From positions 19,220,001 through 19,284,000 of the forward strand of contig JBHGNT010000002.1 in the NCBI GenBank assembly GCA_043228905.1: 64,000 bases of DNA. Direction: 5' to 3'. The stretch's first letter is position 1; each line of letters begins with the position of its first letter. Positions 1,299 through 40,420 of the stretch are shown here, piece after piece. Below the pieces are notes generated by a model. The model did no database searches. It was not told the DNA's origin and saw only the letters and a list, made by a program, of their open reading frames with translations. The translations under genes and the position numbers were made by a program. This DNA is from Azolla caroliniana. Lineage: Eukaryota; Plantae; Polypodiophyta.

Positions 1299-1328
1299 AG
1301 AGGCGGTAGGAAGGATATCAAGTGAACA

Positions 1329-3512
1329 ATGGCTTCAACAAGCGGAACTCAAGGAGAGGAATTAACGAAAGGTATGGTGTCCGTAGTGGAATACATGTTG
1401 AAAGTGAGAGATCGAGAAGCTTTAATCGAGAAAGCTGTTGATCGTACGGTCGAGATAGCTGGACGATTTGGTGGCAAGAACATCACGGATTTTCCTGCTA
1501 CCTATCGGAACGAGATGCAACAAAGGGATGTCAACGATCTCAAACAAATTTCTAGCTTCAAACGTGTGGTGGAACCACGGATCCGCGAGCGCATTATGGA
1601 GATCCAAAGCGAGCATGCAACTTGGGCGGAGTTCGAAAAGGCGCTTCTCGCTAAATACATGCTTGAAGACGCATCTTGGATGACTCGACATACGCTAATG
1701 TCTTGGATCGAGAAGAAAGGGAAGAATATGTGTGCGTATGGAGTATATGCCGAATTTGACTAGAAGTATAACCGACTTCCGAGTGTTAATCAACGAGTTC
1801 TCGATGGAGATAAAGTCCTACTATTCCTGAAGGCAGTGGATGCAAAAGATCGGCGTGAATTGGGTAACTTTTTGGAGGATGAAACACAACCAAATGGCTT
1901 GGTAGCGGACTGGGCGGCGGTGAAGAAGGCTTGTAGCCGTCTTGATAAGCGTCGACAATGGCAAGACGAAACTGATATGGAGAATCCACAATCGTGGAGG
2001 AGGAAGGCACCTATGATGATTGAGTCTAACAAGCCGATCAACAATTTCACCAAGAAAGCGATGGAGGAATGTATAATCGAAGAGCTCTCCAAGAAGTTTG
2101 AAGCGGTATCCCTGGCCAACTTAGTTCGACGCGGGCCGAAGGGAAAAGAAGCGTATAGATGTGTGTGGTGCGACAATTTCGAACACTCGCGAAGGGAGTG
2201 CACTGACTTGCAAGACGCGATTTGCAAGAATGTCGTCTATTTGGACGGCAACATGATCCACTCGAGTGAGACCCGAAAGCCACTACGAGTGAACTTCGGA
2301 AGAGGCGGGCTGAAAAAGATCATGGAAGAGGAAGATGAAAGGCACGTGGAAGCCATGCACTACGCCGCATCGGCGGGAATACGAGTCGGAAGAGAGAATC
2401 TAAAGACGACCAAGCCGGGAGTTGGGTTTTGGCCAACGGTATTCGAGTGTGAAAAGAAAGGAAAAGTAGATTTGGAGGATCTCAAACATGTTGGTCGGAA
2501 TGTGCGACGAGTAACTGGATGGTTGGATCCAGTCGACGATAACACAAGCTTTGCGGAGGTCGTGTGTGACAACTATGAGGCTCTTGTCAAAGAGAAGAGG
2601 AAAAGAACCAGTGAAGAAGATGGCACCTCAAAGCGTCACAATAGAAGGAATGCAAGGAAAGAAGGACAAGCCCAACCTAAGCCACGAAAAGAGATAGGAG
2701 AAACAAGCATGAAGCCCGGTGGATCGAGCCAACCTTCTCGGATGGAAGTCGATGAATCTGTGAAGAAAGGAAAGGAATGAGTGGCGCCGACTTACAAGCT
2801 AAGGTCGGACATAGAACAAACAACAAACTTGCGGAAGGTCCTTGAGGAGAAGGTTTTAGACAGTCATGTCGACCTTACTTTGAGAGAGCTACTTGGGATC
2901 ACTAAGAAGGAGTTCCACGATACTATCGTGGACTTGATTAAGCAGAAGCGGCAACAATCGGATCAAGAAGAGGTGAAAACAAGTGCCATAACCATGGCAA
3001 GATCCGAAGAGGAGGAGGAAGAATAAGTGATGGCGGACAACCATTACTCTCGGCCTCATTGGGCAAGAGAGACAACGGAGACGCCGGTGAAGATCGGAGA
3101 GAAGAAGGAGACCGTGGTAGCCTTGATTGACCATGGTTCGAAGATCAACCTCATGTCGACCGAATTCTACAAGAAAGGAAGATGGCCGATAAACACAAAC
3201 CACGGATGGAAGATACGATCGGCAACGAAGGCCACAGAAGACTTGTACGGATCTTGCCCCAATGTTAAAGTCACAATCGGAGATGTGGAGATGGATCAAC
3301 ACTTCTTTGTGCAAGACTCGGCTTCACATCCCGTCATCCTAGGACAACCATATATCAGGTCGTCCTGGATGGAGACTAAGGTGATCGATAATGGAGCAGC
3401 CTTCACACGAGTCAAGAGCCTTGACAATCAAAGATCTGTTCAATTCCTTACGGTGCGGGCTAATCACGAAAGGAACCAAGATAGCCTTGGAGGCGAATCC
3501 TCAGATTTGTAG
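1329..3512 (+). pseudogene. Gypsy A gag-protease ORF with in-frame stops (1761, 2778, 3024)
   Basis: One frame throughout; capsid-like N-terminus, CVWCDNFEHSRREC zinc knuckle, aspartic protease LIDHGS...ILGQP. Confidence 0.9.
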
Positions 3513-3566
3513 AGCGGACTATTGAAGCGTGGGGCACAAATAGTCCGAGCAATCATAAGTCCCCAC
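3503..3566 (+). promoter_or_regulatory. Putative -1 ribosomal frameshift signal (degenerate slippery site plus H-type pseudoknot)
   Basis: AGATTTG-TAG, stem CGGACTATT(3515-3523)/AATAGTCCG(3539-3547), loop GTGGGG(3529-3534) complementary to CCCCAC(3561-3566); -1 frame open from 3509 into RT. Confidence 0.7.
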
Positions 3567-5868
3567 AAGGAAGCGAAATAAGTGGATCGCAAGGAGAAGC
3601 AACATGTGTGACACCTAGTGGCGCATGTAAACTAACACTACTCAACAAGAAGGACAAGCGTCAGATACAAGACTTCGAGAAGATGTTGAAAGAAGAAAGC
3701 ATAATCGAAGAAGAAGAATTTGTGTCTCATATTCTAGAGGAAGCCTCATTTAACGACACCATCGGTGAAATCGAGGAAGTTGTGGAATTGAGCTACCCTC
3801 ACGATCAAAATGTGATTTCGGTTAACTCCGTCAACATGTACGCTATCATCGATGAATATCATCGAGGCATCTTGATGGAGGAAGCTGAAGTCAACACAAA
3901 ATATAAAACGGTGGATAAGAAGATCAAGCCAGTTGCGGTTCCGCTACCGGAAGATAGCTGGCAGAAGATGAAAGAAGTTGCCAATGATCCGAGCTTAAGG
4001 GATCCAAAGGCAATAGGTCATGTCTTCACCAAAGAGACGAAAGGAAAGCTACAAGTTGGAAGGGAAGATTTCCTTCTCCCTAAAGAGGAGGGAATGTTCC
4101 GCGGAATGCTTGAGAGACATGGGAAAGCCTTTGCCTTCTCTCCACAAGAGATCGGATGTGCCGACCCGAAGATGATAGAGCCGATGGTGATTTTTACGGT
4201 GCCGCATGTACCTTGGAACCTCAAGCCGATATCGGTTCCAAGAGCTCACATTCCAAAGTTGATTGAGCTTCCAAAGGAAAAGGTTAGGATGGGAATTCTT
4301 GAGCCATCCAATGCTCCCTACTCTAATAGATGGCTTACGGTGCCGAAGAAGAACGGGTCCTTATGCTTTATACAAGATCTCCAACCCGTCAACAAGGTGA
4401 CGATCAGAAATGCTGGAATTGGTCCAAGCGTGGATGAATTTGCCGAACCCTTCGCAGGAAGATCGATCTATTCCATTGGTGATCTCTACTCAGGTTATGA
4501 TCAGTTTCAATTGGCCATCGATAGTAGAGATATAATGACAATGAGGACGCCGATCGGGTTGGTAAGGATGTGCACCTTACCCCAAGTTGCGACAAATTCC
4601 GTAGCCCACATGGTGAATGCCATGAACAAAGTGTTGAGGGATTGTATCCCTGATATCACAATGCCCTTCTTAGACGACATTCCAATCAAAGGATGCTTGG
4701 TGGAAGAAAAAGATGAATCGAAAGATGATGATGGTTGCCGAAGATTCGTCATCGATCATATAAAGGATAGTGAGAAGATGTTGCAAAAGCTTGAGGATGC
4801 GAATCTCACGTTTTCGGGAGAGAAGTCTGCATTCGGTCAACCAGAAATATTGGTAGTAGGACACTTATGTGGGTCTTATGGACGGAAGCCATCTCCATCC
4901 AAGGTGAACGATATTCCAGAGATGAAAGAAGAATGTGTGTCTCAAACGGAGGTGCGAAGATTCTTGGGAGCATGTGCATTCTATCACATATGGATTCCAC
5001 ATTATGCCCATGTCGCTGAACCATTGTATGGACTATTAAAGAAAAGGAAGAAGTTCGAATGGAAAGATTAGCATACCTACGTGATTCAAAAGCTAAAGAA
5101 ACTATTATTGGAAGCTCCAACACTGCACAAAGCTGACTACACCGATGGTACCCCGATATATGTGACGGTGGATACGAGCCCAACCGGAATTGGATGGGTG
5201 ATAAACCAAGAAGACAAAGAAAAGAATCGGTATGCAATCCGATTCGGTGCGAAGGTGTTAACCGAAAGACAAAGGAAGTATGCTCAAGTAAAGAGAGAGC
5301 TATGGGGAATAGTATCTGCGGTTAAAACCGACCGTGACTACCTTATAGGAACAGAGGTCATAATCGAAACCGACTGTCTACCTATTCTCGGAATGATATC
5401 CGGTTGTGCTACACTGGATATTGCTATGCTGCGATGGATTGCCTATATCAAGTCCCTCAACCTCGAGATTCGGCATATAAATGGGAAGCATAATGTGGTG
5501 GCCGATATGTTGTCAAGGGCGAGGTATCAGGGTGAAGAAGATTTGCACTCCGACGAAGAGGATGTTGGCCTAAACTTCTTTACGGTTTCTTGTGCTCGGG
5601 TGCAAGTAGTGTTCAAAGTAGAAGATTATGAGGGTGAATTCACCGAAATTGGCAAATACTTAAGCTCTCTTACAAAAGATGAATCATGGTCAAAGGAAGA
5701 CTTCTACCGAATTAGGAAGAAGGCCTACAAGTTCTTCCTCAAAGAAGGACATCTATGGAAGTTTCCGAAGAAGAAGAATGAAACTCCACTTCAAGTGGTG
5801 TGCAAGAAACAGGATCAACAAACACTAATTGTTGAATTTCATGATAGTGTGTGGGCAAGTCATTGTGG
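3509..5868 (+). pseudogene. Gypsy A pol: RT, RNase H, start of integrase zinc finger
   Basis: DLYSGYDQF and FLDD RT motifs, VDTSPTGIG...ETDC RNase H, HDSVWASH; stop at 5069; cut by insertion at 5869. Confidence 0.92.
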
Positions 5869-6688
5869 TGACAGGAACTACACGCTCTGATGAACAATGC
5901 TCAGCCACAACCGAGCTTAGAATCAAACACAGAAAACGAGAAATCAAAAACACGACACAAAGGAGAGAAGAGTACACAAGATGTTTAACGTGGAAAACCC
6001 TAAGAGGGAAAAACCACGGGAGTCCACAGACTCCAAACTATCACTATATCACAATGATTACAACAGTGAGCTCACGGAGGCAACGACCTCATGCTCACGA
6101 TCTTCGCCACAGGCGGCTGTTACAACAGAGGCAACGACCTCTTCCTCTCTCTCTCTCACTGTACACTGTTACGCGCTCTCTAGTCTTGCACTAACAAGAA
6201 TGACAACAACAACATCTAAGTTTGTCCTAAGTCATATTTATACTAATATGACTTTTCGGCTATTTACAAATATAGCCCCCATGGACTCTCAGAAAACATA
6301 TTTACGAATATGTCCCTTCATCCGGTGAGCACTTCTCACCGAGCCTTCATCATCCGGCTCTTGTCGGGTACTCCTCATCCGGTTCTCACAGGGTCTTCCG
6401 TAGTTGGGTACTCCTCATCCGGTTCACACCGGGTCTTCCGTAGCCAGGTACTTGTCATCCGGTTCTCACCGGGTCTTCCGTTGTCGGGTACTTGTCATCC
6501 GGTTCTCACCGGGTCTTCCGTAGCCGGGTACTCCTCATCTGGTTCACACCGGTTCTTCCGTAGCTGGGTACTTGTCATCCGGTTCTCACCGGGTCTTCCG
6601 TAGCCGGGTAGGCCACATTTGGGTAGCCGAGTTTACTCATCAGTACAGTTCTTCTCACTTCCCATCCGGAGGGACCTGTTTCCTAACA
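5869..6688 (-). repeat. 3' LTR of copia B (820 bp) containing a ~39-bp CCGG-rich tandem array
   Basis: TGACAGG...CCTAACA; array of TCATCCGGTTCTCACCGGGTCTTCCGTAGCCGGGTAC units at ~6345-6610, repeated at ~20725-20990. Confidence 0.93.
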
Positions 6689-6699
6689 AACTCCCCCTT

Positions 6700-9600
6700 C
6701 ACTCCGGCATGGGATGTCTTACTAGTAAGATCTGCTTCCGGCATGCATCCAGCTTGTCGGGTATCAGTACTTTGGTCAGCATATCTAACCCATTCTCGGC
6801 CGTGTGGATCTTCGTCAGCGCAAACTCCTAGTCATCTACTCTTTCCCGGATCCAGTGATACCTTCGCTGGATATGCTTCGTTCGGGAATGGTAGGCCGCA
6901 TTCTTAGCAAGGTGGATGGCACTTTGACTGTTGCAATAGAGCCGGTATTCATCTTGCCGGATACCGAGCTCTCCGATGAAATCCTTCATCCATAATATTT
7001 CCTTGCCGGCTTCCACAACCGCCATGTACTCCGCTTCCGTGGTTGACAACGCAACTATCTTCTGCAGCCTCGACTGCCACGAAATAGCTCCCCCTGCATA
7101 TGTCATTACATACCCGGATGTAGACCGGCTGGTATCCACATCAGCCGACATGTCCAAATCGGTAAAACCGTCAAGTTGAGGTTTGCCGGAACCGAATCGG
7201 AGACACATATCCGAAGTGCCCTTCAAGTACTAGAGTATCCATTTGACCGCGTTCTAGTGCTCCTTGTCGGGATTGCTCATAATCCGGCTCACCACTCCGA
7301 CTGCGTAGCCTATATCCGGTCGGGTACACACCATTGCGTACATCAAGCTCCTGACGGTAGAGGCATATGGAACCTTCATCATATCAGCCTTCTCTACTTT
7401 CGTCTTCGGGCTTTGCTTACCGGATAACCTGCAGTTTGCCGGAAGTGTCGATCCGACAGGTTTTGCTTCTAACATGTTGAACCGCTGAAGCACCTTTGTC
7501 ATGTATTTCTCCTGACAACCATAGTTGCTTCGTTGGCCGGTTCCGGATGATATGCATCCCCAACATCTGTCTTGCCGAACCCAAGTCTTCTTCAGCAGCA
7601 TCCGTATCCTCCCTTGGTTCCATCCGATGATCAACATGTCGTCCACGTACAGAAGGAGTATCAGGAAGTCGCCTCCTTCGAACCTCTTCACAAACACACA
7701 GTGATCAGCCTATGTCTTGTGGTACCCTTGATCGGTCATGAAGGAGTCGAACTTCCGGTACCATTGTCGGGGAGCCTGCTTCAGTCTGTACAGGCTCTTC
7801 TTCAACCGGCAAACCAGGCGCTCCTTCCCTTTCTCCAAGAATCCTTCTTATTGCTACATGTAGATCTCCTCTTCGAGGTCACCGTGAAGGAATGTCGTCT
7901 TCACGTCCAACTGCTCTACCTTGAGGTCCATGCTTGCCGCTATACTCAGCACTGTCCGGATGGAGGTCATCTTTACTACCGGGGAAAATATCTCGTCAAA
8001 GTCCACGCCCTTCTTTTGCTGGAACCCCTTCACCACGATCCTGGCTTTGTATCTCGGGGGTTTCCCGGCATCTCCCGGTTTCAACTTGTACATCCACTTG
8101 TTTCGGAGTGCTTGTTTTCGTTTCGGCAACTCCACCAATTCGTATGTATGGTTCTCATGCAGGGAATCCATCTCATCCTGCATGGCACTTAACCATTTGC
8201 GGCTGTGGGTGTCATCCTCCGCTTCTTCGAAGCTTTCTGGCTCCCCCTCATCGGTTAGCAGCACATGCTCTGCATCAGGAAATCTTCGGGGGGGCCTTCT
8301 CTCTCTAAGAGGATATCTCCGTCTTTGGGCTTCGGTAACCGGCCCCTCCATTCGCTCTTCATCCGAATCCGATTCGGGGTCTTGGCCGGTTCCAGTTTCA
8401 GCTTCCTCTACTTCTTCTTCTGCCAGTTCGGTATCTTCACTGTAACCGACTGGTTCCTCGAGTGCTAACTGGTCTCTTGCCGGTTGGGTCTGCTCATCGT
8501 AGAATCGATCCTTACCGGTCGATTCGGAGTTCATTATCTTCTTCTCCGACTCCCAGTCGGCGAGCTTCTTGTCCTCCATGAAGATAATATCTCGACTCCG
8601 GAATACCTTCTTGTCGGCCAAGTCCCACACTCTGTAGCCGAACTCATCGTTGCCGTAACCAAGGAATATGCATGGCCGGGTCTTTGGATCCAACTTTCCT
8701 CTCCGGTCCTTAGCAAAATGCACATACGCAAGCCACCCAAATACTTTCAGATGTCGGTAGGACACTTCCTTACCGGTCCAGACTCTCTGTGGTGTGTCTC
8801 CGTCCAAGGGTACTAAGGGTGATCTGTTTATCACATATGTCACCGTCGACAGTGCCTCAGCCCAAAACTTCTTGGGTAGTTTTGCATGCGCCAGCATACT
8901 CCGGACCCTCTCCATTATGGTCCGGTTCATCCTCTCGGCCAGCCCGTTCGGTTCCGGCGTCTTCGGCACGGTAAATTCGAGCCGGATTCCCTTCCAGCAA
9001 TAGTACTCCTCGAACTGCCCCCGGTATTCACCTCCATTATCTGCTCGAACCGCCTTCAGCTTCCGGCCGGTTTCTCTTTCCACTCTTGCGGGGAGCTCTT
9101 TGAAGATGGATAGCACCTAATCCTTCGTCTTCAACGGTGTGGCCCACAGCTTCCGGCTGTGGTCATCTATGAACGTCACGAAGTACTGCGATCCTGCATG
9201 TGACTTCGTGTCCACTTGACACACATCAGTATGCACCAACTCCAGTGGTGCATTACGTCTCATCGGTGGCCTTGGTCGGAAGGAGGTCCGGTTTTGCTTA
9301 CCGGCCAGACAATCAATGCACTTCTCCAAGTGCACGTTCTTCACTGGAATGAGGTTGTCTTCTGCAAGCCTCTTCATCCCCTTCTCACTCATGTGACACA
9401 GCTCACCGGTAGTGTCGGATGCCACGTTCACTTCTTCCGGGCATAACCGGGCATTCATCAGGTACAGCGTGTTGACCTTCCGGCCCCGAGCCAGAATCAA
9501 GCTTCCTTTGCTGAACTTCATAACACCGTTCCAGATGCTACCCGTGTAGCCTTCATCATCTAGCCGACCGGCTGATATCAGGTTCAGACAAACCTCCGGA

Positions 9601-10700
9601 ACGTGTCGAACATCCTTCAACAGCAACTTGCATCCGGTTGGTGTTGTCAACCACACGTCTCCTATGCCGAAAATTCGGCATGTACCTTCATTCCCCATTC
9701 ACACACAGTCGTGATCACCGGTTGAGTAGGATGAGAAGCATTTCCGGTCTGGGGTAACGTGGAACGACGCTTCGGAGTCGACCACCCAGGTCATCTCGTC
9801 GCCGGCAAGGTTTAGCTCACCCTCCTCGGTGATGAGCATCAACTCTTCTTCACTTGCCGCGATTGTCGCCGTTCCCTTCTAGTCTTTACCATTCCGGTCC
9901 GGTGTCCGCTTCGAATCGGTACCGTCGGTTTCCTTGTCTTTCCGGAAATGCCCACAGTTCTTCTGGAAGTGTCCCGGCTTGCCGCAATAGAAGCAAGTAG
10001 GCCTCCCCCTTGACTTTGACCGTGTCCCCGACTTTTCCCGGTTCTAGGGACTATGGTTTCTTTGTCTTCCGCGTTCCGATTCGGTAAGGAGCGCTTTGGA
10101 GTCGGAGCTCGTATCCTTATCTTTCCGACGCGCCTCCTCATCTAGCAACCTCGACTTCACTCTTGCTAGGGATAACCGTTTCCCTTCCGGCCCGGCATTG
10201 CCCACAGTGAAAACCAATGTCTCCCAGCTATCCGGGAGGGAACCGAGCAGGAGTAGCGCTAGTACCTCATCGGCGAGAGGTACTTCCAATGATGTTGCCT
10301 GGTGTATCATCCCTTGGAAGGCATTCATGTGCTCCACCATGCTGGATCCATCTTGGTACCGGAGTCTTACTAGCTTCCGGAATACCGAAACCTGGTTAAC
10401 AACATTTTTGTTCTGAAACATAATGCCGATCTTCTCCTAGAGCTCATGAGTCTTGCTCTCTTCATTGAAGCTGTTGTATAGACTCATGTCGATGAAGCAC
10501 CGTATGTACGCCATTGTCTTCATGCGCATCACCTCCCATATCGTGGCGTCGATTTTGTCCGATCTCTTGTCCCCGAACTGAACCGGCAACCAAAGGTCTT
10601 TAACCATGAGCATGTCCCTCATCTTCGACTTCCACACCGAATAGTTGGAGCCGGTGAGCTTGAACATGCCTCCCAACGATTCGTCCATTTTCTGTGTCAT
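6700..10700 (-). pseudogene. Copia B gag-pol (Gag, PR, INT, RT, RH) with several stops, frameshifts and deletions
   Basis: Gag FKLTGSNYSVWK, PR WVVDSEASFH, INT HTDVC/RADNGGEY/NGLAER, RT LDVKTTFLHG/LYVDDM, RH STTEAEY/RTKHI. Confidence 0.93.
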
Positions 10701-11347
10701 TTTGCTCTGATACCACTTTGACAGGAACTACACGCTCCGATGAACAATGTTCGGCCACAACCGAGCTTAGAATCAAAAACAGAAAACGAGAAATAAAAAA
10801 CACGACACAAAGGAGAGAAGAGTACACAGGATGTTTAACGTGGAAAACCCTGAGAGGGAAAAACCATGGGAGTCCACAGACTCCAAACTATCACTATATC
10901 ACAATGATTACAACAGTGAGCTCACGGAGGCAACGACCTCGTGCTCACGATCTTCGCCACAAGCGGCGGTTACAACAGAGGCAACGACCTCTTCCTCTCT
11001 CTCTCTCATTGTACACTGTTCAGTTAGGGTTTTCTTCTTGGGTTTTCCTTTAGGGTTTTCTTATAGTCGCTCGGTGCGGCCATGGCGGCCACCATTGTAA
11101 AGCGTTTATGTTTTCTTAATAGAACTTCTTGTTGAGTATCTTGACTCCATCTTCTTCATCTTCTTCTATCATAATGTCATATTCGTTCTCTTCTCCTCTT
11201 GAGCTATGAGCTAATCTTCCATTCGTTGTCTTAACCTTTCCCCTCTTCTCCCTAGTCCAAGACCCCTGTGGTCCCGCCCCTTCCACACGCACGCGCGTAA
11301 CAACGCGACATCTTTGGTGAACCCGACGTGAAGGGCGGCAAGGGAGC

Positions 11348-11895
11348 ATGGAGATTGAAGAATACTTCGACTTCGAGGAGATGATGGCAAAGATCATGAT
11401 GGATGCGTGACGGAAAAAGGCGAGGCGAGATGCGGCTCAACAAGCCGTCGAGAGGGTGGTCGATCGAGTTGGCCGATTCAACGGGGACGATGTCCCGGGG
11501 TTCTTGGATGTGTACGATGCCGAGATGGCGAAAGGGGGCGTAGACGAGGCGATGCGGCTAGAGTATTTTCCTCGAGTGGCGGCCGTATCGGTGCACAAGG
11601 AGGTCAAGGAGCTACGAGAAGCTCATGAGTCGAGGGTGTCCTTTGAGGGAGCCCTATTGGAGGCGTACGGGTACACGGAACCGGAAGGAAGAGGTTGACA
11701 TGAGTTCGATCGGTGGGTAAGCCGGCAACATGATGCGAGGCGGTCGGCCACAACACAATGCGCGAGCGGCGGAGAATAGAGAGCGGTGAGTGGGTACGCA
11801 CTACCACCGGAAGAGAGCTCAACGCAAAACGGTTCGGAGGAGCTCGACCTAGAGGTGCTAATACGGGAGGCATGCGAGCTTGTGAAGGCGAAAAT
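11348..11895 (+). pseudogene. Element C gag N-terminal region
   Basis: AVERVVDRVGRFNGDDVPGFLDVYDAEM aligns with A gag AVDRTVEIAGRFGGKNITDFPATYRNEM; internal TGA stops. Confidence 0.8.
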
Positions 11896-12083
11896 TGAGG
11901 AAAATAATAAGCAAAATAAAATAAAATAAAATAAAATATATTAATATGTAGTTCTTATGAAATCGGTTTCCTTCATGAGAAGGAAACCGTAAGCCTATTG
12001 GTGGTGGTCTTATAAAGCCACCACCAACGTTGTATTCATTAAAGGGGCATTATAATAATAATAAAATGCTTTCTCTGTTTCCC

Positions 12084-12143
<60 letters not shown>

Positions 12144-15100
12144 TTCTTTCTATCTCTCTTTCTCTTCTTTCCCAACATGGTATCAGAGCCAAACGACCTA
12201 ATAGCCTTATAGCCAATGCCTTTCTAAAAACTACAAAACACGTGCCCTATAAATTATATTCATAGTGTTCAAGATCGTCAAATAACGAACGACAATTTTG
12301 TGTTTGCCGTGCGCTGATCCGGACAGCCCTCTGCAATAATGGCGCAATCTATGTCGTCGTCGTAACTCAACATGCGAAAATTCACGATCGAGAAATTATC
12401 GGACACAAATTATCGAATTTGGAAGGCAAGATTAGAATTACTTTTTAAATATAATAAAGTATGGGACATAATTTCAGGATCGTCAACAAAACCTGAAAAA
12501 GGCGAAGAACTTGAAGAATATGAAGAAAAAGATTTGTGTGCAAGAATGGAAATTCTAATGCACGTAAGTGATGGCACCGGAGAAACATTGCAAAAAATGG
12601 AGACGGCTCATGAAATGTGGAAGCACTTACAAACTATCTACGAGCCGAAAAATGATGCCCAGCAAGCGCATACACTTCAAGCACTTGTTAATTACAAAAT
12701 GAATGACGAACAACCGGTTGGTGAATTTCTATTAATATGGCAAAAGAAATTAGATGATATGTTAACTTCAGGATTAGAAATCCATGATAAATTACAAAAG
12801 ATTCTCCTCCTTGGTGCTCTTCCTCACTCGTGGTCCACTTTTAGAACCACCCAAAACTCTATAAATTGTCCAACGCTAATCGATCTTCTTGCAAACATTA
12901 GACAGGAGGAAACAATGCGTTCACAAAGGTCTTCAAATTCAACTCCAAGTATGGCAATGGTAGCATACAAGAACAAAAGGTTCACCCAAAGAGGAGAAAG
13001 CTCGAAGCCGTGGATAAAGAAAGATCAAAACACTAAACAAGGAGAAATGCGGTTCAACAATACCTATTGTAAAATATGCAAACGTACAAATCATGCAACC
13101 AAAGATTGTCGCGCAAAGTCAAATGTCAAGAGTTATCAACCATGGAAGCGTGTACAAGCCCATCTTGTTGAAGAAGAGATGGATGATGAAAAAGTCATAG
13201 GAGATGGATATCAAAATGGCGACAAGTATGACGACGTCCTTCAAGCATTCATTGCTGAATCACTTTCCGCGACGATTCCAAACCCAAGTAATGTAAATGA
13301 CATATGGTATCTCGACACTGGTGCTACTAACCACTTAACTAATAGAAAAGATTGGTTATGTAACTATAAGGATGTTGAACCTCCTATCATTGTAAGATTT
13401 GGAAATAATGGGACTAAAGAAGCTATTGGCAAGGGTGATATTACGTTTGAAGTCACAGGAGGAAGACATTTCACAATCAATGAAGTTCTCTATGTCCCGG
13501 GCATTACCAAACACTTGCTATCGGTTAGTCAAGCAACGACAAATGGTACTATCATTGAATTTCATCCTAACCATGCTATTATTAAACATAAAGCCTCAAA
13601 TGGAGAACTTATTAGAACATGTTGTAAACGAGAAGGAGGCTTATATCCCATAAAATGTATTCCTACATCTCTTATTTTAGAAGCACATCATACTACCCCA
13701 ATACAATCCTCCATATCTTTAACCAATCTTCATTCTCCTTCTTCTCTTTGGCATTTTCGTCTAGGTCATATGCATTTCAATGCTCTTAAAACACTACAAT
13801 GTAATAATCTTGTCCATGGTTTGCCAAAAGAACCTTTCAAGCCCATCTCTTTGTGTGAAAGTTGTATCCTTGGGAAAATGCCCCAACAGCCATTCCCAAA
13901 GCATAGATCTAGAGCCACTACCCCTCTTGCATTAGTACATAGTGATCTATGTGGACCTTTTCCAACCCCTTCTCTTAGTGGAGCCAAATATTTCATTAGC
14001 TTTATAGATGACTTTAGTCGATTTACAATCTTGCATTTTCTCTAGTACAAAAGTCAAGCTTATCAAGCATTCAAAGAATACAAGGCTCGAGTCGAAGTGC
14101 AAACATCATCAAAGATTAAAAGTCTTCAAACCGATGGTGGTGGTGAGTATATGTCTCATGAATTTCAAAGTTTATATCTAAATGAAGGCATACATCATAG
14201 AATATCAACACCACACACACCACAACAAAATGGTGTATACGAAAGGAAGAATAGATCACTTCTCAATATGGCTCGAAGTATGTTACAATTTGCTCACTTA
14301 TCACCTCAATTTTGGGAGGAAGCGGTTGGCACCGCGTGCTATATTCAAAATCGAGGATTTCATAGATCCTTGGGGCTCCAAACCCCTTATGAACTATGGC
14401 ATGGTCACAAACCTAACTTAAGTAACCTTCGTTTTTTGGTTGTGATGCTTATGCTTTTGTGCCAAATGTTCAAAGAAATAAGCTAGATCCAAGGGCTACA
14501 AAATCAACTTTCATCGGATATGGAGAAGCTTCAGGATACAAGGCGTACAAGCTCTACGATCCACAAAAACGAAGAATATTCTTTAGTCGTAATGTGATAT
14601 TCCAAGAAAATGGGCCTTCTACAAAGGTTTCTTCTTCACCCTCTTCTAATCTACCTCCCTTATTACCTACCCCTAACTACTTACAACCATCTTCCTCAAC
14701 CATCTCTAATATTAATAGCTCTCATATTGAAGGAGCCAACATTGGCTCATCCTCTACTTCCACAATTTGTGTTGCTCTTCCATCTATTCATAAGGCAAAG
14801 ATCAATCCTACTCAACCAACTAATTCTTCTTCTCATCTTCCCTCATTCCAATCTCTAGATGATTCTCTTCCTCATACTCCTTTAAATATACATTGTTTAA
14901 CTCCCTCTAATAATACAAATAATGTTATCTTCTCCACTCCCTCTCCTAATCCTTCATTCCAAGTGTCATCACCAACTTCTCCACCAAACTCTCCACCTCC
15001 AAAGTATAGATCTCTAAGTAATATTTATGAACAACTTGATCAAATGGAAGCACATTTCGTGGACTTGGACCATGAAGCTTATATTCAAGAAGAAGATATT

Positions 15101-16948
15101 CCAACCCTTAGTGATGACACAAATCTATCGGCCAAAGATGCACTTTCCGGATCGGATTCTATCAAATGGAGAAAAGCTATGGAAGAAGAAATGAAGGCTT
15201 TACTTAAAAATGGTACGTGGACCCTCGTTGAGCCTCCAAAAGATTGACAAATAATTGGTTCTAAATGGGTCTTACGCATAAAGCGAGATAGTAATGGCAA
15301 TCCAATTCGCTTCAAGGCTCGTGTAGTTGCTCGAGGATTTGCGCAAGTACCAGGTATTGATTTTCAAGATACATTTAGTCCAACGCTAAAAATATGTGGT
15401 TTTCGAATGCTCATTGCTCTTGCCGCACAACATGATCTAGAATTGCATCACTTGGATGTACAAACGGCTTTTCTTCATGGAGATTTAGATGAAGAACTTT
15501 ATCTACAACAACCACAATTTTTTGAAGATCCAAGTCATCCGACACATGTTTGTCGACTTCATAAATCTATTTACGGCCTTAAGCAATCTCCACGCATATG
15601 GTATCACAAACTACACTCTTTTCTTATAAAAGTTGGATATCATCGTCTAAACAATGAGCCAAATATCTATGTTAGAAAAGCCAAATCCAATTTTGTTATC
15701 ATAGGTGTCTATGTTGATGATTTGCCTTTGATCTCTAACTCTAAATCTTATTTAGCTATTGCAAAGAAGGAACTTGCATATGTTTTTCCTATTACCGATT
15801 TAGGCCCTATGACCCATTTTCTAAGCATCAAAATATCTCAAAGTAGAACAAATCATACTATCTCATTATCACAATCAAATTATATTAATTCTATCCTCCA
15901 AAAATTTGATATGCTCCATAGTAAGCCTATTAAAACTCCTCTTACCTCTCCATGTAAACTATCAAATGATGATTCTCCCAAAAATGAACGAGAAATTTCC
16001 GAAATGAAGGATGTACCCTATAAGCAAATCCTTGGGTGTATAAGATATCTAGTAAGTTGTACACGTCTCGATATTTTCTTTGCCGCCGGTTTTCTTTCTC
16101 GTTTCATGTCTAATCCAGGACCAAAGCATTGGATCGCGCTCAAAAGATTACTACGATACTTGAAGCACACTCAACATTATGCGTTGACTTACTCCGCCAC
16201 ACAATCCGAGTCAACCACACTTGTGCAAGGATGGACAAATCCCTCTAGCCAACTAATTGGTTGGTCAGACTCGGACTGGGGGGAGATGTAGACGATCGCA
16301 AGTCAACAGGTGGATATGTTTACACACTAGCTGGTGGTGCAATTTCGTGGAAGTCAAAGAAACAAACTACCGTAGCATTGTCATCCACCGAAGCTGAATA
16401 TGTTGCCGCGGCTTTAGCGGCTAAAGAAGGCATATGGATTAAAGCTATGCTCGATGAATTTAAGTTATTTGCTATTCCACCAGTGACTTTGTTTTGTGAT
16501 AATCAATCTTGCATCAAGTTAGCCAACAATCCAAAGATGAGCGACAATATTCGTCATGTGGATTTGAAGCATCACTTTCTTCGTGATCTCATTGAAACGA
16601 AGAAGATAGAGTTAAAGTTTGCTCCCACTCATCAAATGTGGGCTGATTTTCTAACGAAGCCTCTTCAACATTCTAAGAACATTATTTGTTGCAAGCAAGT
16701 TGGATTAATTGATGTAATCGAAGATAAAGATGAAAACCTACACTTCTAGAAAAAATTTCTTAGGGGGGAGTGAGGAAAATAATAAGCAAAATAAAATAAA
16801 ATATATTAATATGTAGTTCTTATGAAATCGGTTTCCTTCATGAGAAGGAAACCGTAAGCCTATTGGTGGTGGTCTTATAAAGCCACCACCAACGTTGTAT
16901 TCATTAAAGGGGCATTATAATAATAATAAAACGCTTTCTCTGTTTTCC

Positions 16949-17000
<52 letters not shown>

Positions 17001-17034
17001 TTCTTTCTATCTCTCTTTCTCTTCTTTCCCAACA
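11896..17034 (+). mobile_element. Short Ty1/copia LTR retrotransposon 'D' (5.1 kb), youngest of the nest
   Basis: Perfect TSD AAAAT (11891-11895, 17035-17039); LTRs 11896-12177 and 16771-17034; PBS TGGTATCAGAGCC 12178-12190; PPT AGGGGGGAG 16762-16770. Confidence 0.97.
12372..16749 (+). pseudogene. Copia D gag-pol, disrupted (TAG 14043, frameshift ~14435, TGA 15245, frameshift ~16280)
   Basis: Gag, CKICKRTNHATKDC knuckle, WYLDTGAT protease, HSDLCGP/DGGGEY integrase, YVDD RT, SSTEAEY RNase H. Confidence 0.95.
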
Positions 17035-17040
17035 AAAATC

Positions 17041-19851
17041 GGAGCCGAAGAAGGGCTTGTTATGGAGACGGGCCGGAGGCGATCGGAGGATGCGGAGGAA
17101 GAAGCCTCCCTAGACGTAGAAGACGGGGCCTATACAGAGGCCGGGAGAGCGTACGACGGCGACATAGGAGAGGGTGCGGAGCAAGCGACCCTCTTGTCTT
17201 GCGGCGAATGGACGGCCATGGAGGCCGGTAACTACAAATTCGGGACATGGCGGCCCGAAACATCGAGGGAGGAGGAGACAAGCGGCGGTGCCGCGACCTT
17301 ACACACACTGGCCCTAGAGGCACCGGCGGTCGGCCCGATTGCCGGCGTGAGACCTAGAGCGACGGGCGGTGGCGGCAGCAAGGCGGGCAACCGAGACAAC
17401 AGTATGGAGACTGTGGAAGAGGAGGCGGCAAGCATAATTGATGCTTGCATATACGGAGGCGGGGTAGCCACGGACGACCATGTCCGAATGGAGGTGGCTA
17501 CGGGCATAGCATCGACGAGCGGCAGCGTTGCTACCTTACACGCACCAGTTCAAGAGACCCCGGCGGCCGGCCCGAGTGCCCGCGTGAGACTTAGGGTAAT
17601 GAACGGTGGCGGCGAAGCGGACGACCACGGCGACGATGTGGGAGAGGGTGCGGAGCGAGCGATCCTCTCGACTTGTGGAAAGAGGACGGCCAAGGATGAG
17701 GCCGATATCTACGGAGCAATGGACGCCACTTCGAGAGTGGGCGAAAGTTTCGGGACGCGGTTGCCCAAAACGTTCTACGAGGATTTCGCGAGCATACTCG
17801 AGGCTTGCGAAATCGAGGAAGAAGAGGAGACGAGTGGCGGTGCCGCGACCTTCCACACACCGGTCCTAGAGACTCCAGCAACCGGCCCGAGAGCCGGTGT
17901 GAGACCTAGAGAGACGGACGGTGGCGGCGGCAAGGCGGGCAACCGAAATGACGAAGAGGAGGTTTGTAGCGGACGGAGGCGAGATCCCTCGACACCGGGG
18001 CCGGAGACTTCGGCGGTTGCGCCCGAGCGCGGACATAAGACCGGGGAGATGGGCGGTGGCCATGAGGATGAGAGGCCCGGAGTGGGCACGTGCGAAAAGA
18101 CCGAAGGAGAGGTCCGGAGCGGCATCAAAGAGCGAGTCGGGAACCGACCCGACCGAAAGATGAGCCGGTCGGTAATCCGACCTGACCGGGAGGCGGAGCG
18201 GAAGAAGAGTGAAGCGGGGGCCGGTCAACCAAGCACGAACCAAAGGAAGCCAGCAAGACCGGGATTGTTTGATCAATTCGTAGCCGGTCGGATACGGTTA
18301 CGGTGGGAGCCGGTGAGAGCGAGAAGGAGGCCTAGTGGGCACGGTGATCACGGCTTGCTAGAAGACCGAGAGTGAGAGGGACCTTCCACACCGATTCTAG
18401 AGACTTCGGCGGTTGCGGATCAACGTGAGACCGGAGAGACGGCAAGTGGCGGCGAGGAGTCGGAGGCCGAAGCGGACAAAGTTATTGGAGCGGGTATCCG
18501 GTATGAGATGATGGACGAGCGGGTCCAAGATGGCGAGCTCGGGTCGGCACGGGCTACGGTGACAAAGGAAGAAGTGGCCGACGCGGAGGTCGGGTCTACG
18601 GCGTATGAAGGGCGTAACACGAAGCATGCACTACGGTCGGTGAAGGGCCCAAGAACAAGCATGCATCCGAGAGAGCGTCAACGAGTGACCGGAAACGGTG
18701 GACCAATTGAACCTTTGAGAGGCGAGGACTCGGTGGTGAACCAAGAGTGGGAGGAACCCTCCACACCTACCCGTGAGGCATCGGCGGTCGCGGATCGAAA
18801 GGAGAAAGAAGAAGCGGTGGGTGGCGGCGAGGAGTTGGAGACCGACGCGGCGGTCGGGTCTACGGCGGAAGCACAACACGAGATGCATGCAATACGGCCG
18901 GTGGAGGGCCAAGACACAAGCATGCATACGGCGGATGGGCGACAACGATTGACCGACGATGACGATCGGATCAAGCCTTCGAGAGGCAAACGCGGGACGA
19001 AGGACAGCGTGGCGAAACACCAAGATCGATGACATGGGCCGAGCGCGATCGGCATGAGCGGAGAGCCGTATCTAGGAAAACGGAGGAGATGCGCGGAGAA
19101 CAACGGGGTACACACCGGAAAGAGAAAGCGCGACGGCTTCCCGGAGGGCATACAAGGCCAAGCGGGCCAAGAGGGCGCAAGTCGAGGCGAGGCGATAACG
19201 AGAGCCTTGAGGGACACCGACACGGAGGTCGGGATGACGATACGCTCTACTACGAGAGAGCACGGCGAAAAAGGGGAAAGCGAAAAATGCGTGATGGGGT
19301 CATCGAAGGACCGAAGCACGAGCACGCATTCGTAGGGCAACATCGACATACGGGGAAAGCCTACGGAAGGCAAGCGCGGAGCGGAGAGAGTCGGCACGCC
19401 GAGGTGTGCGGCATGCAAAGGGCGGAATCCGGCATGCGACCGGGAGCGCATCCGGACGATATACGAGGCAGACAAAGGAAGAGCAACCGGGTCGGCGACG
19501 GCATTCGGGAGGACCGAACGGGGAGGAAAGCACGGGCATCGGATACGACGGGTCGGATGTAGTCGGTGGTTCAAGGACCCACGGTGGACGTGGCGGATCG
19601 GGTGGAGGCAACGACTCGGCGAACATCGTCGAGTGTGGCGGATCGGATGGCGCCGACGGTTCGAGACCATTCGGCGAGGATGGTGGGCCGGAAGGCGGCG
19701 GTGGTTCGTGTGGACGGGGTGGTCTTGCTCGAAGTGGAAGACAAAGCCGGGCGGGCCCACGAGGACGCTAAGGACTCGGTCGGTCGTCGTGGCCGAAAAT
19801 CTCGTGTTCTCTCCCCTATGTTTTGGCACATACCGGAGGATGTGCGGTTAG
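17041..19851 (+). pseudogene. Element C long acidic/Gly-rich repeat-containing frame (unknown function)
   Basis: ORF-track pieces 17062, 18508, 19054 and 19633 share one frame broken by only three stops (18373, 19030, 19333); internal peptide repeats. Confidence 0.55.
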
Positions 19852-19862
19852 GTGGGGGCGGA

Positions 19863-20546
19863 TGTCGTGAAGATTTTCGTCCACAAGCGGAAACCCGAGC
19901 AACGAGAGCCAAAGAGCGATGTGCAACGTTGCACACGTACATAATGTATTTGTAATAGTAATAAAGGTATAAAGGTGATGTGGCTGTACGCACATCCACG
20001 CGAGAGAGAGAGAGAGAGGTACTATGCGGTACATAGGTACCTAGTTGTTTGTGAGGAGGTGGGAGTTAAGGGGCCATCAATCTCACCATTCCCCAAATCA
20101 AGGCAAATATCCCCTTTGAATGAAAGGGGATATTTTAGTCTCACTTTTGTAAACGGTCTTCCCTCCTTGTGCTATAAAAGGAGAGAGAAGGCACCATTGT
20201 GGGGGTTGCCTATTTTGAGTGTGCGAGGTATACCACATAGGTCGAGCGTTAGGGTTCGGTTAGGTTTTTCTTCTTGGGTTTTCCTTTAGGGTTTTCTTAT
20301 AGTCGTTCGGTGCGGCCATGGCGGCCACCATTGTAAAGCGTTTATGTTTTCTTAATAGAACTTCTTGTTGAGTATCTTGACTCCATCTTCTTCATCTTCT
20401 TCTATCATAATGTCATATTCGTTCTCTTCTCCTCTTGAGCTATGAGCTAATCTTCCATTTGTTGTCTTAACCTTTCCCCTCTTCTGCCTAGTCCAAGACC
20501 CCCGTGGTCCCGCCCCTTCCACACGCACGCGCGTAACAACGCGACA
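19863..20546 (+). repeat. 3' LTR of element C
   Basis: Follows PPT; its 3' 290 bp match 11021-11310; TATAAAAGG at ~20173. Confidence 0.92.
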
Positions 20547-21064
20547 ATGCGCTCTCTAGTCTTGCACTAACAAGAATGACAACAACAACATCTAAGTTTT
20601 CCCTAAGTCATATTTATACTAATATGACTTTTCGGCTATTTACAAATATAGCCCCGATGGACTCTCAGAAAACATATTTACGAATATGTCCCTTCATCCG
20701 GTGAGCACTTCTCACCGTGCCTTCATCATCCGGCTCTTCTCGGGTACTCCTCATCCGGTTCTCACCGGGTCTTCCGTAGCGGGATACTCCTCATCCGGTT
20801 CACACCGGGTCTTCCGTAGCCAGGTACTTGTCATCCGGTTCTCACCGGGTCTTCCGTTGTCGGGTACTTGTCATCCGGTTCTCACCGGGTCTTCCGTAGC
20901 CGGGTACTCCTCATCCGGTTCACACCGGGTCTTCCGTAGTCGGGTACTTGTCATCCGGTTCTCACCGGGTCTTTCGTAGCCGGGTAGGCCACATTCAGGT
21001 AGCCGAGTTTACTCATCAGTATTGTTCTTCTCACTTCCCATCTGGAGGGACCTATTTCCTAACA

Positions 21065-22162
21065 CGTGGTATATGGGCAACATTTGCAAAGCTCAAGGAG
21101 AAGTATTGGTGGCCGGGTGTTTACAAAGATGTAGCAAGCTATGTTGAAACATGTGAGCAATGCCAATTATACTTGAATATTCAACATAGGGATGAACTTC
21201 ATCCAACATATCCATTATCAATGCACTATAAGTGGTTGGTAGACATAGTGGTTATGCCAATGGGATTGGGGAAAATGAAATATCTCATGCTAGCAAGAGA
21301 GGATCTCACCAACCAAGTAGAAGGACGGGCGTTAGGGAATAAAACAACTTCGGCGGTTTGTAGGTTTCTCCTTGAAGATGTTATTTGTCGATACGGATGT
21401 GTCGGCAAAATAGTGGCCGATAGAGGAGAATTAGATACGAATGAAGCTAAAGAGTTCTTTTCAAGAATAGGCGTCACATTATCGCTCACCATGGCATACA
21501 ACCTGGACGCAAATGGGAAGGTAGAACGAGGACGTAGTCCAATTGTAAAAGCTCTAGCAAAGGCTTGCGACGGCAAAATGGGAAATTGGCCACGATTACT
21601 ACCTTATGCATTTTGGGCAGATAGAACTACACATAGCACGATTATGGGATATATGCCCGCCGAACTCATATTAGGACAAAAACCAATAATGCCTATTGAG
21701 CAAAGTGTTGCTTTGTGGACGTCTTTGCCATGGCAAGAGGAAATGAGTCGGGAAGACTTGCTAGCCACGAGGATTCAGCAATTAGAACAAAGGCCCGAAG
21801 ATGTCGAGTTGGCAATAGAACAGTTGCGCCAAGCTCGATTGAAGAACAAGGAGAATTTTGATAGAAAGCATCGTCTTTGACAAAGAAAAATTGAAGAAGG
21901 AGATTGGGTTCTTGTCTATGATAGTAGTCTCAATAATCAATATAGCACTACTCGAAAGTTCGCAAAACGATGGTTTGGCCCGTATATGGTCAAGAAAATA
22001 GAAAGCAATGCAACCTATTTTTTAGCAGAGTTAGATGGAACTCGACTTGCTTTGCCAATAGCAAGGAAGAGGATCAAGATCTTTAAGAGAAGAGAAGCCT
22101 CAAATCTTGAGATCGAAGATCTAGATGATGTATCCTCGAACATCGAGGTTGAAGAAGAGTAA
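21065..22162 (+). pseudogene. Gypsy A integrase, remainder
   Basis: Resumes (H)RGIWATF...CEQC zinc finger, VDIV/ADRGE/NGKVER core, WFGPY C-terminal motif; TGA at 21878. Confidence 0.92.
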
Positions 22163-22228: not shown

Positions 22229-23604
22229 TGTCGTATGGTTTTTCACACACGATATGAAAACTAGTAAAATAAATATTTACGATTAGCTTAATATATGGAT
22301 ATGGAAAGATAGATGTGTTCAAGAGCTTCATAGCGTATTTTACTACGCATAAAACGGATAAAAAAGTATCAAGTTATGCGAGTGTGAAGTTTGAAGAAAA
22401 GAAAAGAAAAGACAAAATTGTAAGATATCCCACATAGATAGGACAACATTGGAACCCAGAATATATAAGGGAAACCAAAACATATTTATTCTATCAATAT
22501 GTGGAGAATAGAATGTTCAAGGTGACTTGGGCTACACTATGTGGTGTGCACGCTTTGGGCGTACGCGCGTGTGCATGGTCGCGTGAATGTTTTCAGATGT
22601 ACGCGCGCATGGATGTCTTCGGATGTACGCGCGTGTGCAAGTTTTGGGCGCATGTGTGGACGTTTCGGACGGACGCGTGTGTGCGCACGGGCGCATGCGT
22701 GGATGCGTACACTACGGCACGGTCGAGCCTTTGGGCGTACGCACGTGTGCATGGCCGTGTGGACGTTTTCGGACGTACGCGCGCATGGACATCTTCAGAT
22801 TTACGCGCGTGTGCAAGTTTCGGGCGCATGTGTGGACATTTCGGACGGATGCGTGTGTGCGCACGTGCACATGCGTGGATGCGTACACTACGGCACGATC
22901 GAGCTTTTTGCGCGCGGATGCGTACACGGTGCAGGTTGGACGTGCACGCGCGTGGATGCGTACACTACTACGCGGTTGGGACTTTTGCGTGCGGACGCGT
23001 CTACGGTTTGGTTGCAACACACGTACGGATTGCGCACGGGCTAAACTTTATGGATGATTGTGTCATTTGGCCGAATTATACGGACAATCGCATGCAACCA
23101 AAAGCCAAGGCCATGCAACTAAAAATAGAGGCCATCCAACTAAAAGTGGGCATGCAAAGTAACATTGGGGAGGAGGATCAACGAGGAGCTCGATATATGT
23201 CCCATTTTTTTCCTCCTAGTTTTTTTTTTCCCCCCTTCTTTCTTCTTCCCTCTCGGATTCGAGAAACAAATTATCTCACATATTGATATCAAACTCCTAG
23301 CTTTGTTTACTCGACTTTTCTGGTCAAAAATTATCTCTCATATTCATATCGGACCACTCCTTGCATGGTTGTTGGCTCCTTTCTTTGGAAAATTAATCTC
23401 TCATTTGCATACCTAACCCATTGTAACACGATTCTAAAATTATAAAGAATCAATTTTCTTTTGCAATAAACTAATGATTTGTCTCTCCCACTTGTCTTAT
23501 GCTTAAAACTTGCTTTTGTTGTACCTGTTGCTCTAAATCCTTCTAGTCCAGAACCCCCGCGGTTCCGTCTCACGATCCGCACATAGTGACGGATTTTCAC
23601 GACA
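22229..23604 (+). repeat. 3' LTR of gypsy A (1376 bp)
   Basis: TGTCGTATG...TCACGACA; homologous to 1-1272. Confidence 0.95.
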
Positions 23605-38454: not shown

Positions 38455-40357
38455 TTATATATTTTTCTTAGAACTAACCTATCATGATTAAAACCTCAAA
38501 CCATTAAAATAATCAGCCTCCCTAATTTTAAGATAATTTAGGAAACAAATTGTCAATTTTGGAATCTTCTAGTTTAAAAGCGAAGGATGTTTCTAAACCT
38601 AATGTTGGATATTCCAAGTGATCAAGTATGATTCTTTCAACATAGGACTTTGTTACAGAATATCATTGTTTGGAGATGGCCATGTAAAAATAAGTCAATC
38701 ATATGAATAATATTCATCAACTGTTTAACCTTGAGAAAAACTTAGACCTATGACTGTCATCCTCATCTCCAAAGGTTCCAATGCAATGGTTGAATCCCAA
38801 AACCTCCATACCACTATGCTTGACAGATGAGTATTCCCCTCAGCATTGACAACCTACATCATCAGTAACACACAAGAAGTTCTCTTAGTGAGAATACATC
38901 TCATGCATTCTTAAGAGTGGGGAGAGCTAGAACTGATTCCGGTTAGAACTTCCCAAAAACCGGAATCTAGCCGGTTCATAATTTTTGAACCAACTATTTA
39001 TATAGTTTTGGGAAAATATAAAAAATTGAACTCTTTTGATATTTTCCCCCTCTTTCCCTCCTCTTTTCTCTCTTTTCCCTCTTCTGTAACCTATTGCCTG
39101 TGTCTCGACTCTCGACTCTCAACATTTCCCTCTTCTGCTCATTCCTCTTTACTCATCGATTGCCTCTATGTTAACTCTAAACCCAACGATTGTGTGTGGA
39201 GGCTTCGTACTCTACTCCCTGTTGCGTGTGGCGCTTCAAATTCAGAGTCCAAAGTTCATACTTGATTGTTGAACCGGGCAGAATCAAGAAGTAAGTCATT
39301 GATTGAACCTTAAGTCCTCGTCTATAGCATATCAAATGTAGATTCTATCAACAATATTGTTTAGAACATCATTGAAGAGTGAATCTGTTGGCACAAAACT
39401 GATAATAATATGTTTCCCCTTTTGATCTTCTCAAGTGGACTCCTAAAAGTTATAGGTTTTTCTAAATGCGAATCTTGCCACCTCTCTGAGTAGCAAAAAC
39501 AATAGTAGTAAGTTGTTGCGAGAACTATAGGTCAGCTCAGTAATCATCCCAAGTAATAGTAATACACCTCAAGGAAACCTCATGTTAATTTCTACTTTTT
39601 ATTCCACAAGGTTCGATCCAAAAAGTGTATGCATAATTTGTAGCTTGAATTTGTGGACATATCTACCTTGAAATTTGAATAATAGGGTATGGTCTTAAGT
39701 TAAAAGATGTTTTAATGCAAGCGATTGTGCACAACCTTCCACTAGAGTCCACAATTGTTGAGAAGGTATACTTTTATTGGCATTTTCCTTTAAAATATTT
39801 GTCTCCAATTATGTATGAAGAGTCTTGACAATGCTCTTGTTCTAGGTTATGACTCCAAATCTAGAGTGTACCACAATTGATATGAGCATTGTAAATTCTT
39901 TGCATGTCATGCATGATAAAATTCCTTCATTTAGTTGTCATAGATCGAGGTAAAAAGACCAAATGATTTACGAGTTATGATCACGCTAAAGAAACCAAAT
40001 CATTCTTGTCTTCGTTGTGTGTTTTGGAGTTTCTCTTGTGGATTGTGGCTGAGGGTTGCATTGTGGCTTGTCTGGATGCCCATGCCATTGTTCCTATGGT
40101 ATAAAAGATTTGTCATGTTTTAAACTTCATTTTACATCTACCCACCCTTAAGAATACATGAGATGTATTTTGACTAAGAGAACTTCTTGTGTATTACTGA
40201 TGATTTAGGTTGTCAATGCTGAGGGGAATATTGATCTGTCAAGCATAATGATACAAAGGTTTTAAGATTCAACCATTGCATCGGAACCGTTGGAAGATGA
40301 GGATGACAGTCATAGGTCTGAGTTTTTCTCAAGTTTAAACATGTGATGAATGTCTAT

Positions 40358-40420
<63 letters not shown>

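Follow-up and report, generated by a model that had tools for sequence, protein, structure and literature searches.

RESULTS

Two LTR retrotransposons in the window change frame after the protease

The window analyzed here, a 64,000-nt stretch of contig JBHGNT010000002.1 from the 523-Mb genome of Azolla caroliniana, contains two long terminal repeat (LTR) retrotransposons, elements A and G, in which pol lies in a different reading frame from gag-protease (gag-PR). Element A is on the plus strand and is an old, broken copy. Its 5′ LTR (positions 1 to 1272), which starts ~25 nt upstream of the window, is 88 to 95% identical in pieces to its 3′ LTR (22229 to 23604) and is followed by a primer-binding site (PBS) of the tRNA-Trp type with one mismatch (1281 to 1297). 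The gag-PR frame (1326 to 3512) is interrupted by stops, and its protease open reading frame (ORF; 3027 to 3512) terminates at TAG 3510 to 3512. Sequence encoding a linker, reverse transcriptase (RT), and RNase H (RH) is found in the -1 frame (3485 to 5890) with one stop (5069 to 5071), which ends the RT-bearing ORF (3485 to 5071). Pfam searches returned a match to RVT_1 and a match below the cutoff to Asp_protease_2. The integrase (IN; 20900 to 21880), which nested insertions separate from RT-RH, probably belongs to element A given the LTR positions. These insertions (5869 to 20866) include copia elements, with gag/pol ORFs at 12366 to 16291 and 7854 to 9116, and a 40-bp tandem repeat. The element A protease (3027 to 3509) carries the motif L-I-D-H-G-S at residues 33 to 38, in which the D, H, and G are invariant across 22 aligned sequences; the usual motif is D-T/S-G.

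At the end of the element A protease, a degenerate heptamer, AGATTTG (A_GAU_UUG; 3503 to 3509), stands where most members of the family have G_GAU_UUU. It is followed by a predicted H-type pseudoknot, whose stem 1 and its loop (3516 to 3546) arise by pairing of 3516 to 3523 (GGACTATT) with 3539 to 3546 (AATAGTCC), with an extra pair at C3515-G3547, and whose stem 2 (3529 to 3566) pairs GTGGGG (3529 to 3534) with CCCCAC (3561 to 3566). A search of positions 3400 to 3700 with Rfam covariance models returned only a chance match to SNORD52 (14 bits against a gathering score of 45).

Element G, also old and broken, is present at full length on the minus strand (45175 to 52145), with LTRs (51478 to 52145 and 45175 to 45825) that are 91% identical, a tRNA-Trp-type PBS, and a CCGG target site duplication on both sides. 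Its heptamer is an intact GGATTTT (G_GAU_UUU; 49361 to 49355), followed by TAG (49354 to 49352) and a 6-nt spacer. Stem 1 and its loop (49348 to 49318) pair 49348 to 49341 (GGGCTATC) with 49325 to 49318 (GATAGCCC), and stem 2 (49335 to 49296) pairs GTGGGG (49335 to 49330) with CCCCAT (49301 to 49296). Without a pseudoknot, the fold of this site is ordinary (z = -0.9). An earlier note on this window had described the two-frame junction in both elements, and both match its description, as do the -1-frame peptides that it quoted, VERTIEAWG for element A and LERAIKAWG for element G.

Elsewhere, the window holds host genes for an aromatic amino acid lyase (PF00221; 34199 to 36058, minus strand) and a leucine-rich-repeat protein (58749 to 60110, plus strand), as well as long inverted repeats that are 87 to 93% complementary (38558 to 41400) and are possibly the terminal repeats of a DNA transposon.

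The elements resemble Phygy-type Ty3/gypsy retrotransposons

Shared features and similarity to Physcomitrium proteins indicate that elements A and G and their relatives are of the Phygy type within Ty3/gypsy. Phygy elements are described by Neumann et al. (2019; PMC6317226) as having a 4-bp NCGN target site duplication, a tRNA-Trp PBS, no chromodomain, and a short internal region, all of which are common to the elements studied here. A clean NCGN duplication was found in 9 of 20 fetched stretches, and the complement of the PBS matched host tRNA-Trp(CCA) genes, identified with ARAGORN, in all three fetched. Two whole pol ORFs matched Pfam RT, RNase H, and integrase models, giving the domain order GAG-PROT-RT-RH-INT, with no match to a chromodomain or, among these general models, to an archaeal RNase H. 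Intact elements measure 7.1 to 8.1 kb, compared to the 7.7 to 10 kb given for Phygy (PMC6317226). The best Physcomitrium matches are 53 to 60% over the protease, and the named protease homologs belong to a moss (Physcomitrium), a liverwort (Riccia), and a fern (Adiantum), the remainder being metagenome proteins. Thus, the earlier attribution to plant gypsy elements holds as to gypsy, but its scope narrows to this Phygy-type lineage. The 3′-end motif of tRNA-Trp, the primer tRNA of the family, has 63 matches genome-wide and forms dense clusters at C8:17796786-17823371 (period of ~1.2 kb) and C16:4989495-5105657.

The ORF organization of Phygy is entered as ND by Neumann et al., and their lineage table gives overlapping frames after the protease for no lineage; the layout seen here, in which GAG-PROT overlaps RT-RH-INT, prevails in none of those tabulated (PMC6317226). 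Ogre and Retand of the Tat clade likewise have a coding break after the protease, although theirs takes the form of a spacer with an intron or of a single stop codon rather than overlapping frames with a slippery site and a predicted pseudoknot. Tcn1 and Selgy of nonseed plants also have two overlapping frames, but the overlap lies between GAG and PROT (PMC6317226).

Functional elements keep gag-PR and pol in two frames

The junction pattern GATTTTTAG N15-19 TGGGG has 3,254 matches in the Azolla genome, compared to 10 for a reversed control. Whereas the T5 junction is present in these 3,254 copies, the version with six Ts, which would place pol in frame, was found twice, and the T4 version was found 13 times. 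The two in-frame variants (L237 and L238) are single copies from different subfamilies with no sign of spread. When 30 loci from the same genome were picked on protease sequence alone, 28 carried pol in frame -1 with G_GAU_UUU; of the other two, one carries a later indel and one is without pol. Among 80 metagenome loci, 18 without an RT hit were left out, and the remaining 62 comprised 57 in the -1 register, 4 in the +1/-2 register, and 1 in frame 0.

The two-frame arrangement is not confined to decayed copies. Three young copies (L170, L171, and L177), which were among 13 full-length -1 stretches picked by stem variant, have LTRs that are 99.6 to 99.9% identical, a whole gag-PR of 696 to 714 amino acids (aa), and a whole -1-frame pol of 1,167 to 1,204 aa. 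Pol dN/dS among the -1 families is 0.058 to 0.073. The idea that young, intact copies might have gag and pol in a single frame was therefore not borne out, and the two-frame layout is the functional state.

Database proteins fit this layout. There are 118 homologous proteins whose ends fall within 60 aa of that of the protease; the last residues are DF in 62 and [DG]F plus 5 aa in 35, the latter matching the subtype with its stop inside stem 1. Another 44 continue beyond the protease end, and the 18 viewed, at the protein level, are joined at differing places in a manner resembling false introns; the two-frame junction explains why gene models of these elements span it inconsistently. In three loci (L215, L216, and L182), a polypurine tract and LTR-like sequence come almost immediately after the gag-protease ORF and pol gave no hit; these are likely nonautonomous Gag-PR-only elements. 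No relatives were found among the viral contigs searched, and a search of genome contigs gave two loci, one of them usable. Retrotransposon junction L235 lies on a contig that belongs to a cyanobacterial metagenome-assembled genome and is most likely eukaryotic contamination.

A conserved slippery heptamer precedes a predicted pseudoknot

The heptamer was scored at 107 loci with an open -1 frame, after 72 of 189 loci had been dropped for lack of two open frames: 87 have G_GAU_UUU, 13 have a close variant, and 7 have neither. The earlier note had regarded the element A heptamer as decayed, and the nearest copies agree: position 3509 is T in all 29, and position 3503 is G in 17, A in 11, and T in 1. 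The AGATTTG of element A is thus a copy-specific decay.

For the structure, eight loci without the heptamer were left out of the nonredundant set, leaving 37 junctions, from which L134 (decayed) and L100 (1-nt bulge) were removed to give 35 junctions that were aligned without gaps on sequence alone. In these, pairing in stem 1 (8 pairs) reaches 98.2%, and 6 of its pairs show two-sided changes, whereas slid registers pair at only 40 to 48%. For stem 2, pairing is 74.8% when one register is fixed, and the register shifts between families. The predicted H-type structure lies 4 to 8 nt downstream of the heptamer, compared to the 5 to 9 nt of a canonical -1 frameshift signal, and its geometry fits in 37 of 38 junctions; in 11 of the 35, an extra C-G pair leaves an effective spacer of 5 nt. 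In a scan for H-type folds, which scored helix stacking energy only, the true site ranked above all but 0 to 1 of 54 to 67 background positions in 37 of 38 junctions. An outlying junction that was 52% identical and had not been used to define the structure (L235) also pairs in this register, at 10 of 12 positions and through new pair types.

The comparison of elements A and G, from which covariation had originally been argued, gives one clean two-sided change, since only element G itself has a perfect G-C at stem pair 3, where its 29 nearest copies have a G·U wobble. The covariation claim therefore needed a wider sample. Across the 35 junctions, the covariation sum over the helix is 68.9, compared to -0.1 ± 11.9 for a null in which the changes in each column were re-dealt over the branches of a tree built from the protease and pol proteins; none of 1,000 null replicates reached this value. 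The two best of 903 column pairs are stem 1 pairs, but with E values of 0.3 and 0.9, they fall below single-pair significance. Covariation thus supports the helix as a whole rather than any single pair. By parsimony, 35 of 39 changes in pairs 1 to 8 preserve pairing, relative to ~15 expected, and many of the stem changes are of the wobble type. Since the stems overlap the pol frame, part of this conservation may be at the protein level, a partial confound.

Immediately after the heptamer, 13 of 37 junctions have TAG, 10 have TAA, 5 have TGA, and 9 have another triplet. This distribution bears on whether, as in Ogre, splicing at the PR/RT boundary could instead give access to pol, with the stems being incidental. 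TTTTTAG does resemble a splice acceptor, CAG/GT in the +1/-2 clade described below resembles a donor, and some gene models span the junction with introns. However, the overlapping frames leave no spacer to be removed, and no joints were seen at one -1 junction covered ~8- to 19-fold in each of three RNA runs, a weak observation given that the reads were diverged and on both strands; at the junction of the +1/-2 clade, a look for RNA reads gave none. Because the acceptor-like AG is present in just 13 of the 37 junctions and the RNA reads, albeit at low depth, show no joints, we consider splicing very unlikely. Transcriptional slippage was also rejected, as the run is only five Ts long and RNA reads at low depth had no indel rows at the site.

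Based on these comparisons, the G_GAU_UUU junction is a real and widely conserved recoding signal from which we infer the shift, and -1 frameshifting in the main lineage is very likely. The heptamer and both stems are kept across divergent families, as the earlier proposal of a lineage-wide -1 signal predicted, but one clade departs from it by using the +1/-2 register.

A derived clade carries pol in the +1/-2 register

In two metagenome families (L114 and L121), pol is in the +1/-2 frame and the -1 frame is closed. Their site has 105 matches in the Azolla genome, compared to 2 for the control, and a site-blind pattern has 110; among the 100 of these that were listed, the length is kept in every one and G_GTT_TTT is present in 90. 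The 110 genomic copies together with the two metagenome families rule out an assembly artifact. Of 20 clade loci, the first pol match is in the +1/-2 frame in 18, the remaining two having stem indels, and 18 have a -1 frame that is closed within 2 codons. The clade is monophyletic (bootstrap value of 100) and, with midpoint rooting, nested among -1 families. Two further loci in the +1 register (L128 and L130) were excluded from the clade as low coverage and broken.

The clade site is AG_GUU_UUU, and the conserved stem begins 5 rather than 6 nt past the heptamer. Since the change of register by itself shortens the spacer, the shortening does not constitute independent evidence for a -2 shift. 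The UUU codon that would be read after the shift is equally far from stem 1 in the -1 and +1/-2 types. The downstream sequence builds the stems of the lineage, and the arterivirus CCCANCUCC motif is absent. Two clade copies have A_GAT_TTT, which suits a -2 shift poorly, and one locus in the -1 register (L132) has G_GUU_UUC and is a possible stepping stone between the registers.

In seven clade copies that were fetched whole, having been selected for open frames, the LTRs are 99.5 to 100% identical; five have a whole pol ORF (1,164 to 1,181 aa), and three have both ORFs whole. Pol dN/dS in the clade is 0.062 to 0.084, with dS of up to ~1.1 between families of the same register. Purifying selection thus acts on pol in both registers, and the low dN/dS in the clade implies that its pol is being translated. 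These data also weigh against the clade lacking a Pol of its own, either because it is mobilized in trans by -1 families or because Pol arises by reinitiation at an internal AUG. Autonomous -1 relatives are plentiful in the same genome, pol-less derivatives such as L215 and L216 are known, and an AUG does lie 24 to 28 codons into the pol frame of the clade. Nevertheless, pol is constrained (dN/dS of 0.06 to 0.08 across a dS of 1.1 between same-register families), the youngest clade copies retain the whole 1,181-aa pol ORF, and the clade has retained a pseudoknot that scores among the strongest, making either route highly improbable.

A less remote alternative is that the main lineage shifts by -1 but that ribosomes enter pol in the clade by moving +1, either at UUU_N or at the codon that precedes UAG. 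The register alone cannot separate +1 from -2, and the UUU_U found in some clade copies would allow +1 re-pairing. Most clade copies, however, have UUU_G, on which tRNA-Phe would re-pair poorly after a +1 shift, and the U of GUU, which is needed for a -2 shift, is retained (the 90 of 100 listed copies with G_GTT_TTT). Moreover, the stop overlaps stem 1, such that a ribosome shifting at the stop would presumably meet a melted structure. We therefore regard a +1 shift as unlikely and -2 frameshifting in the clade as probable.

DISCUSSION

Taken together, these analyses suggest, with a probability of roughly 80%, that a conserved slippery site and a predicted pseudoknot after the protease shift ribosomes into pol, by -1 in most of the lineage and by -2 in a derived clade. 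In the model that we infer for pseudoknot folding, pausing, shifting, and the product ratio, the majority of ribosomes would terminate after the protease, yielding abundant Gag-PR, while a minority, with Asp and Phe tRNAs (Val and Phe in the clade) on the site, would pause at the pseudoknot. The paused ribosomes would slip by -1 at G_GAU_UUU, or by -2 at AG_GUU_UUU in the clade, producing a minor Gag-PR-RT-RH-IN protein. The change from -1 to -2 would have come about by loss of one base between the site and the stem, with the U of the clade site permitting the A-site tRNA-Phe to re-pair two bases back. Somewhat more tentatively than for the -2 shift itself, we favor the view that this young, amplifying clade makes Pol by a natural pseudoknot-driven -2 shift that evolved from the -1 signal through the loss of one spacer base and that would be the first such case in a retroelement.

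A slippery site with a pseudoknot is an established mechanism, and G_GAU_UUU is known from a plant virus, being the shift site of pea enation mosaic virus, an umbravirus (PMC5009743); the +1/-2 register clade goes beyond the earlier note. The virus shares with the elements an identical heptamer, a nearby stop, and plant ribosomes but differs in having its own stimulatory RNA and another genome context. Rous sarcoma virus, an alpharetrovirus, likewise combines a pseudoknot with a -1 shift where gag ends, according to the same recoding review (PMC5009743). Since it belongs to an unrelated lineage and uses another heptamer, the likeness is one of analogy only. In alpharetroviruses, the protease is the last part of Gag, and with the junction described here, too, the protease would fall on the high-copy side.

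For the -2 shift, the closest parallel is nsp2TF of PRRSV, in which AG_GUU_UUU is the -2/-1 site and, as in the clade, is immediately followed by a stop in the -1 frame (PMC7618472, PMC4937337). In PRRSV, a protein complex on a C-rich motif is used in place of an RNA structure, whereas the clade has a predicted pseudoknot 5 nt downstream, and unlike nsp2TF, the -2 product of the clade would be the essential Pol. The clade site is thus arterivirus-like in its working yet lies outside the arterivirus system. Lin et al. found -2 shifting to be optimal with a spacer 1 to 2 nt shorter than that for -1, and switching between the two under spacer control was demonstrated with engineered spacer variants (PMC3458567). 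If our reading is correct, the lineage provides a naturally matched -1/-2 pair of signals sharing one pseudoknot, which would make the mRNA tension model directly testable.

The natural -2 shifts named in the 2016 recoding review are those of phage Mu, arteriviruses, and Trichomonas vaginalis virus 1, and plant elements with separate frames are given there as two types, as of a 2003 survey, both +1 (PMC5009743). The available text of a 2025 review of plant LTR elements (PMC12786077) names no plant frameshift signal, and that of the P. patens RLG1 paper (PMC7466625) has no match to "frameshift" or "ORF." Across the openly available literature searched, no description of the junction or of retrotransposon -2 frameshifting was found. 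The junction supplies a specific, conserved signal by which an abundant nonseed plant lineage of LTR elements could set its Gag:Pol ratio. Several distant relatives (P0220, P0221, P0237, P0258, and P0262) also stop directly after the protease, ending in ENF, EDF, or EGF; such endings would fit A_AAU_UUU, G_GAU_UUU, or G_GGU_UUU sites, and the layout may reach beyond the named plant hosts.
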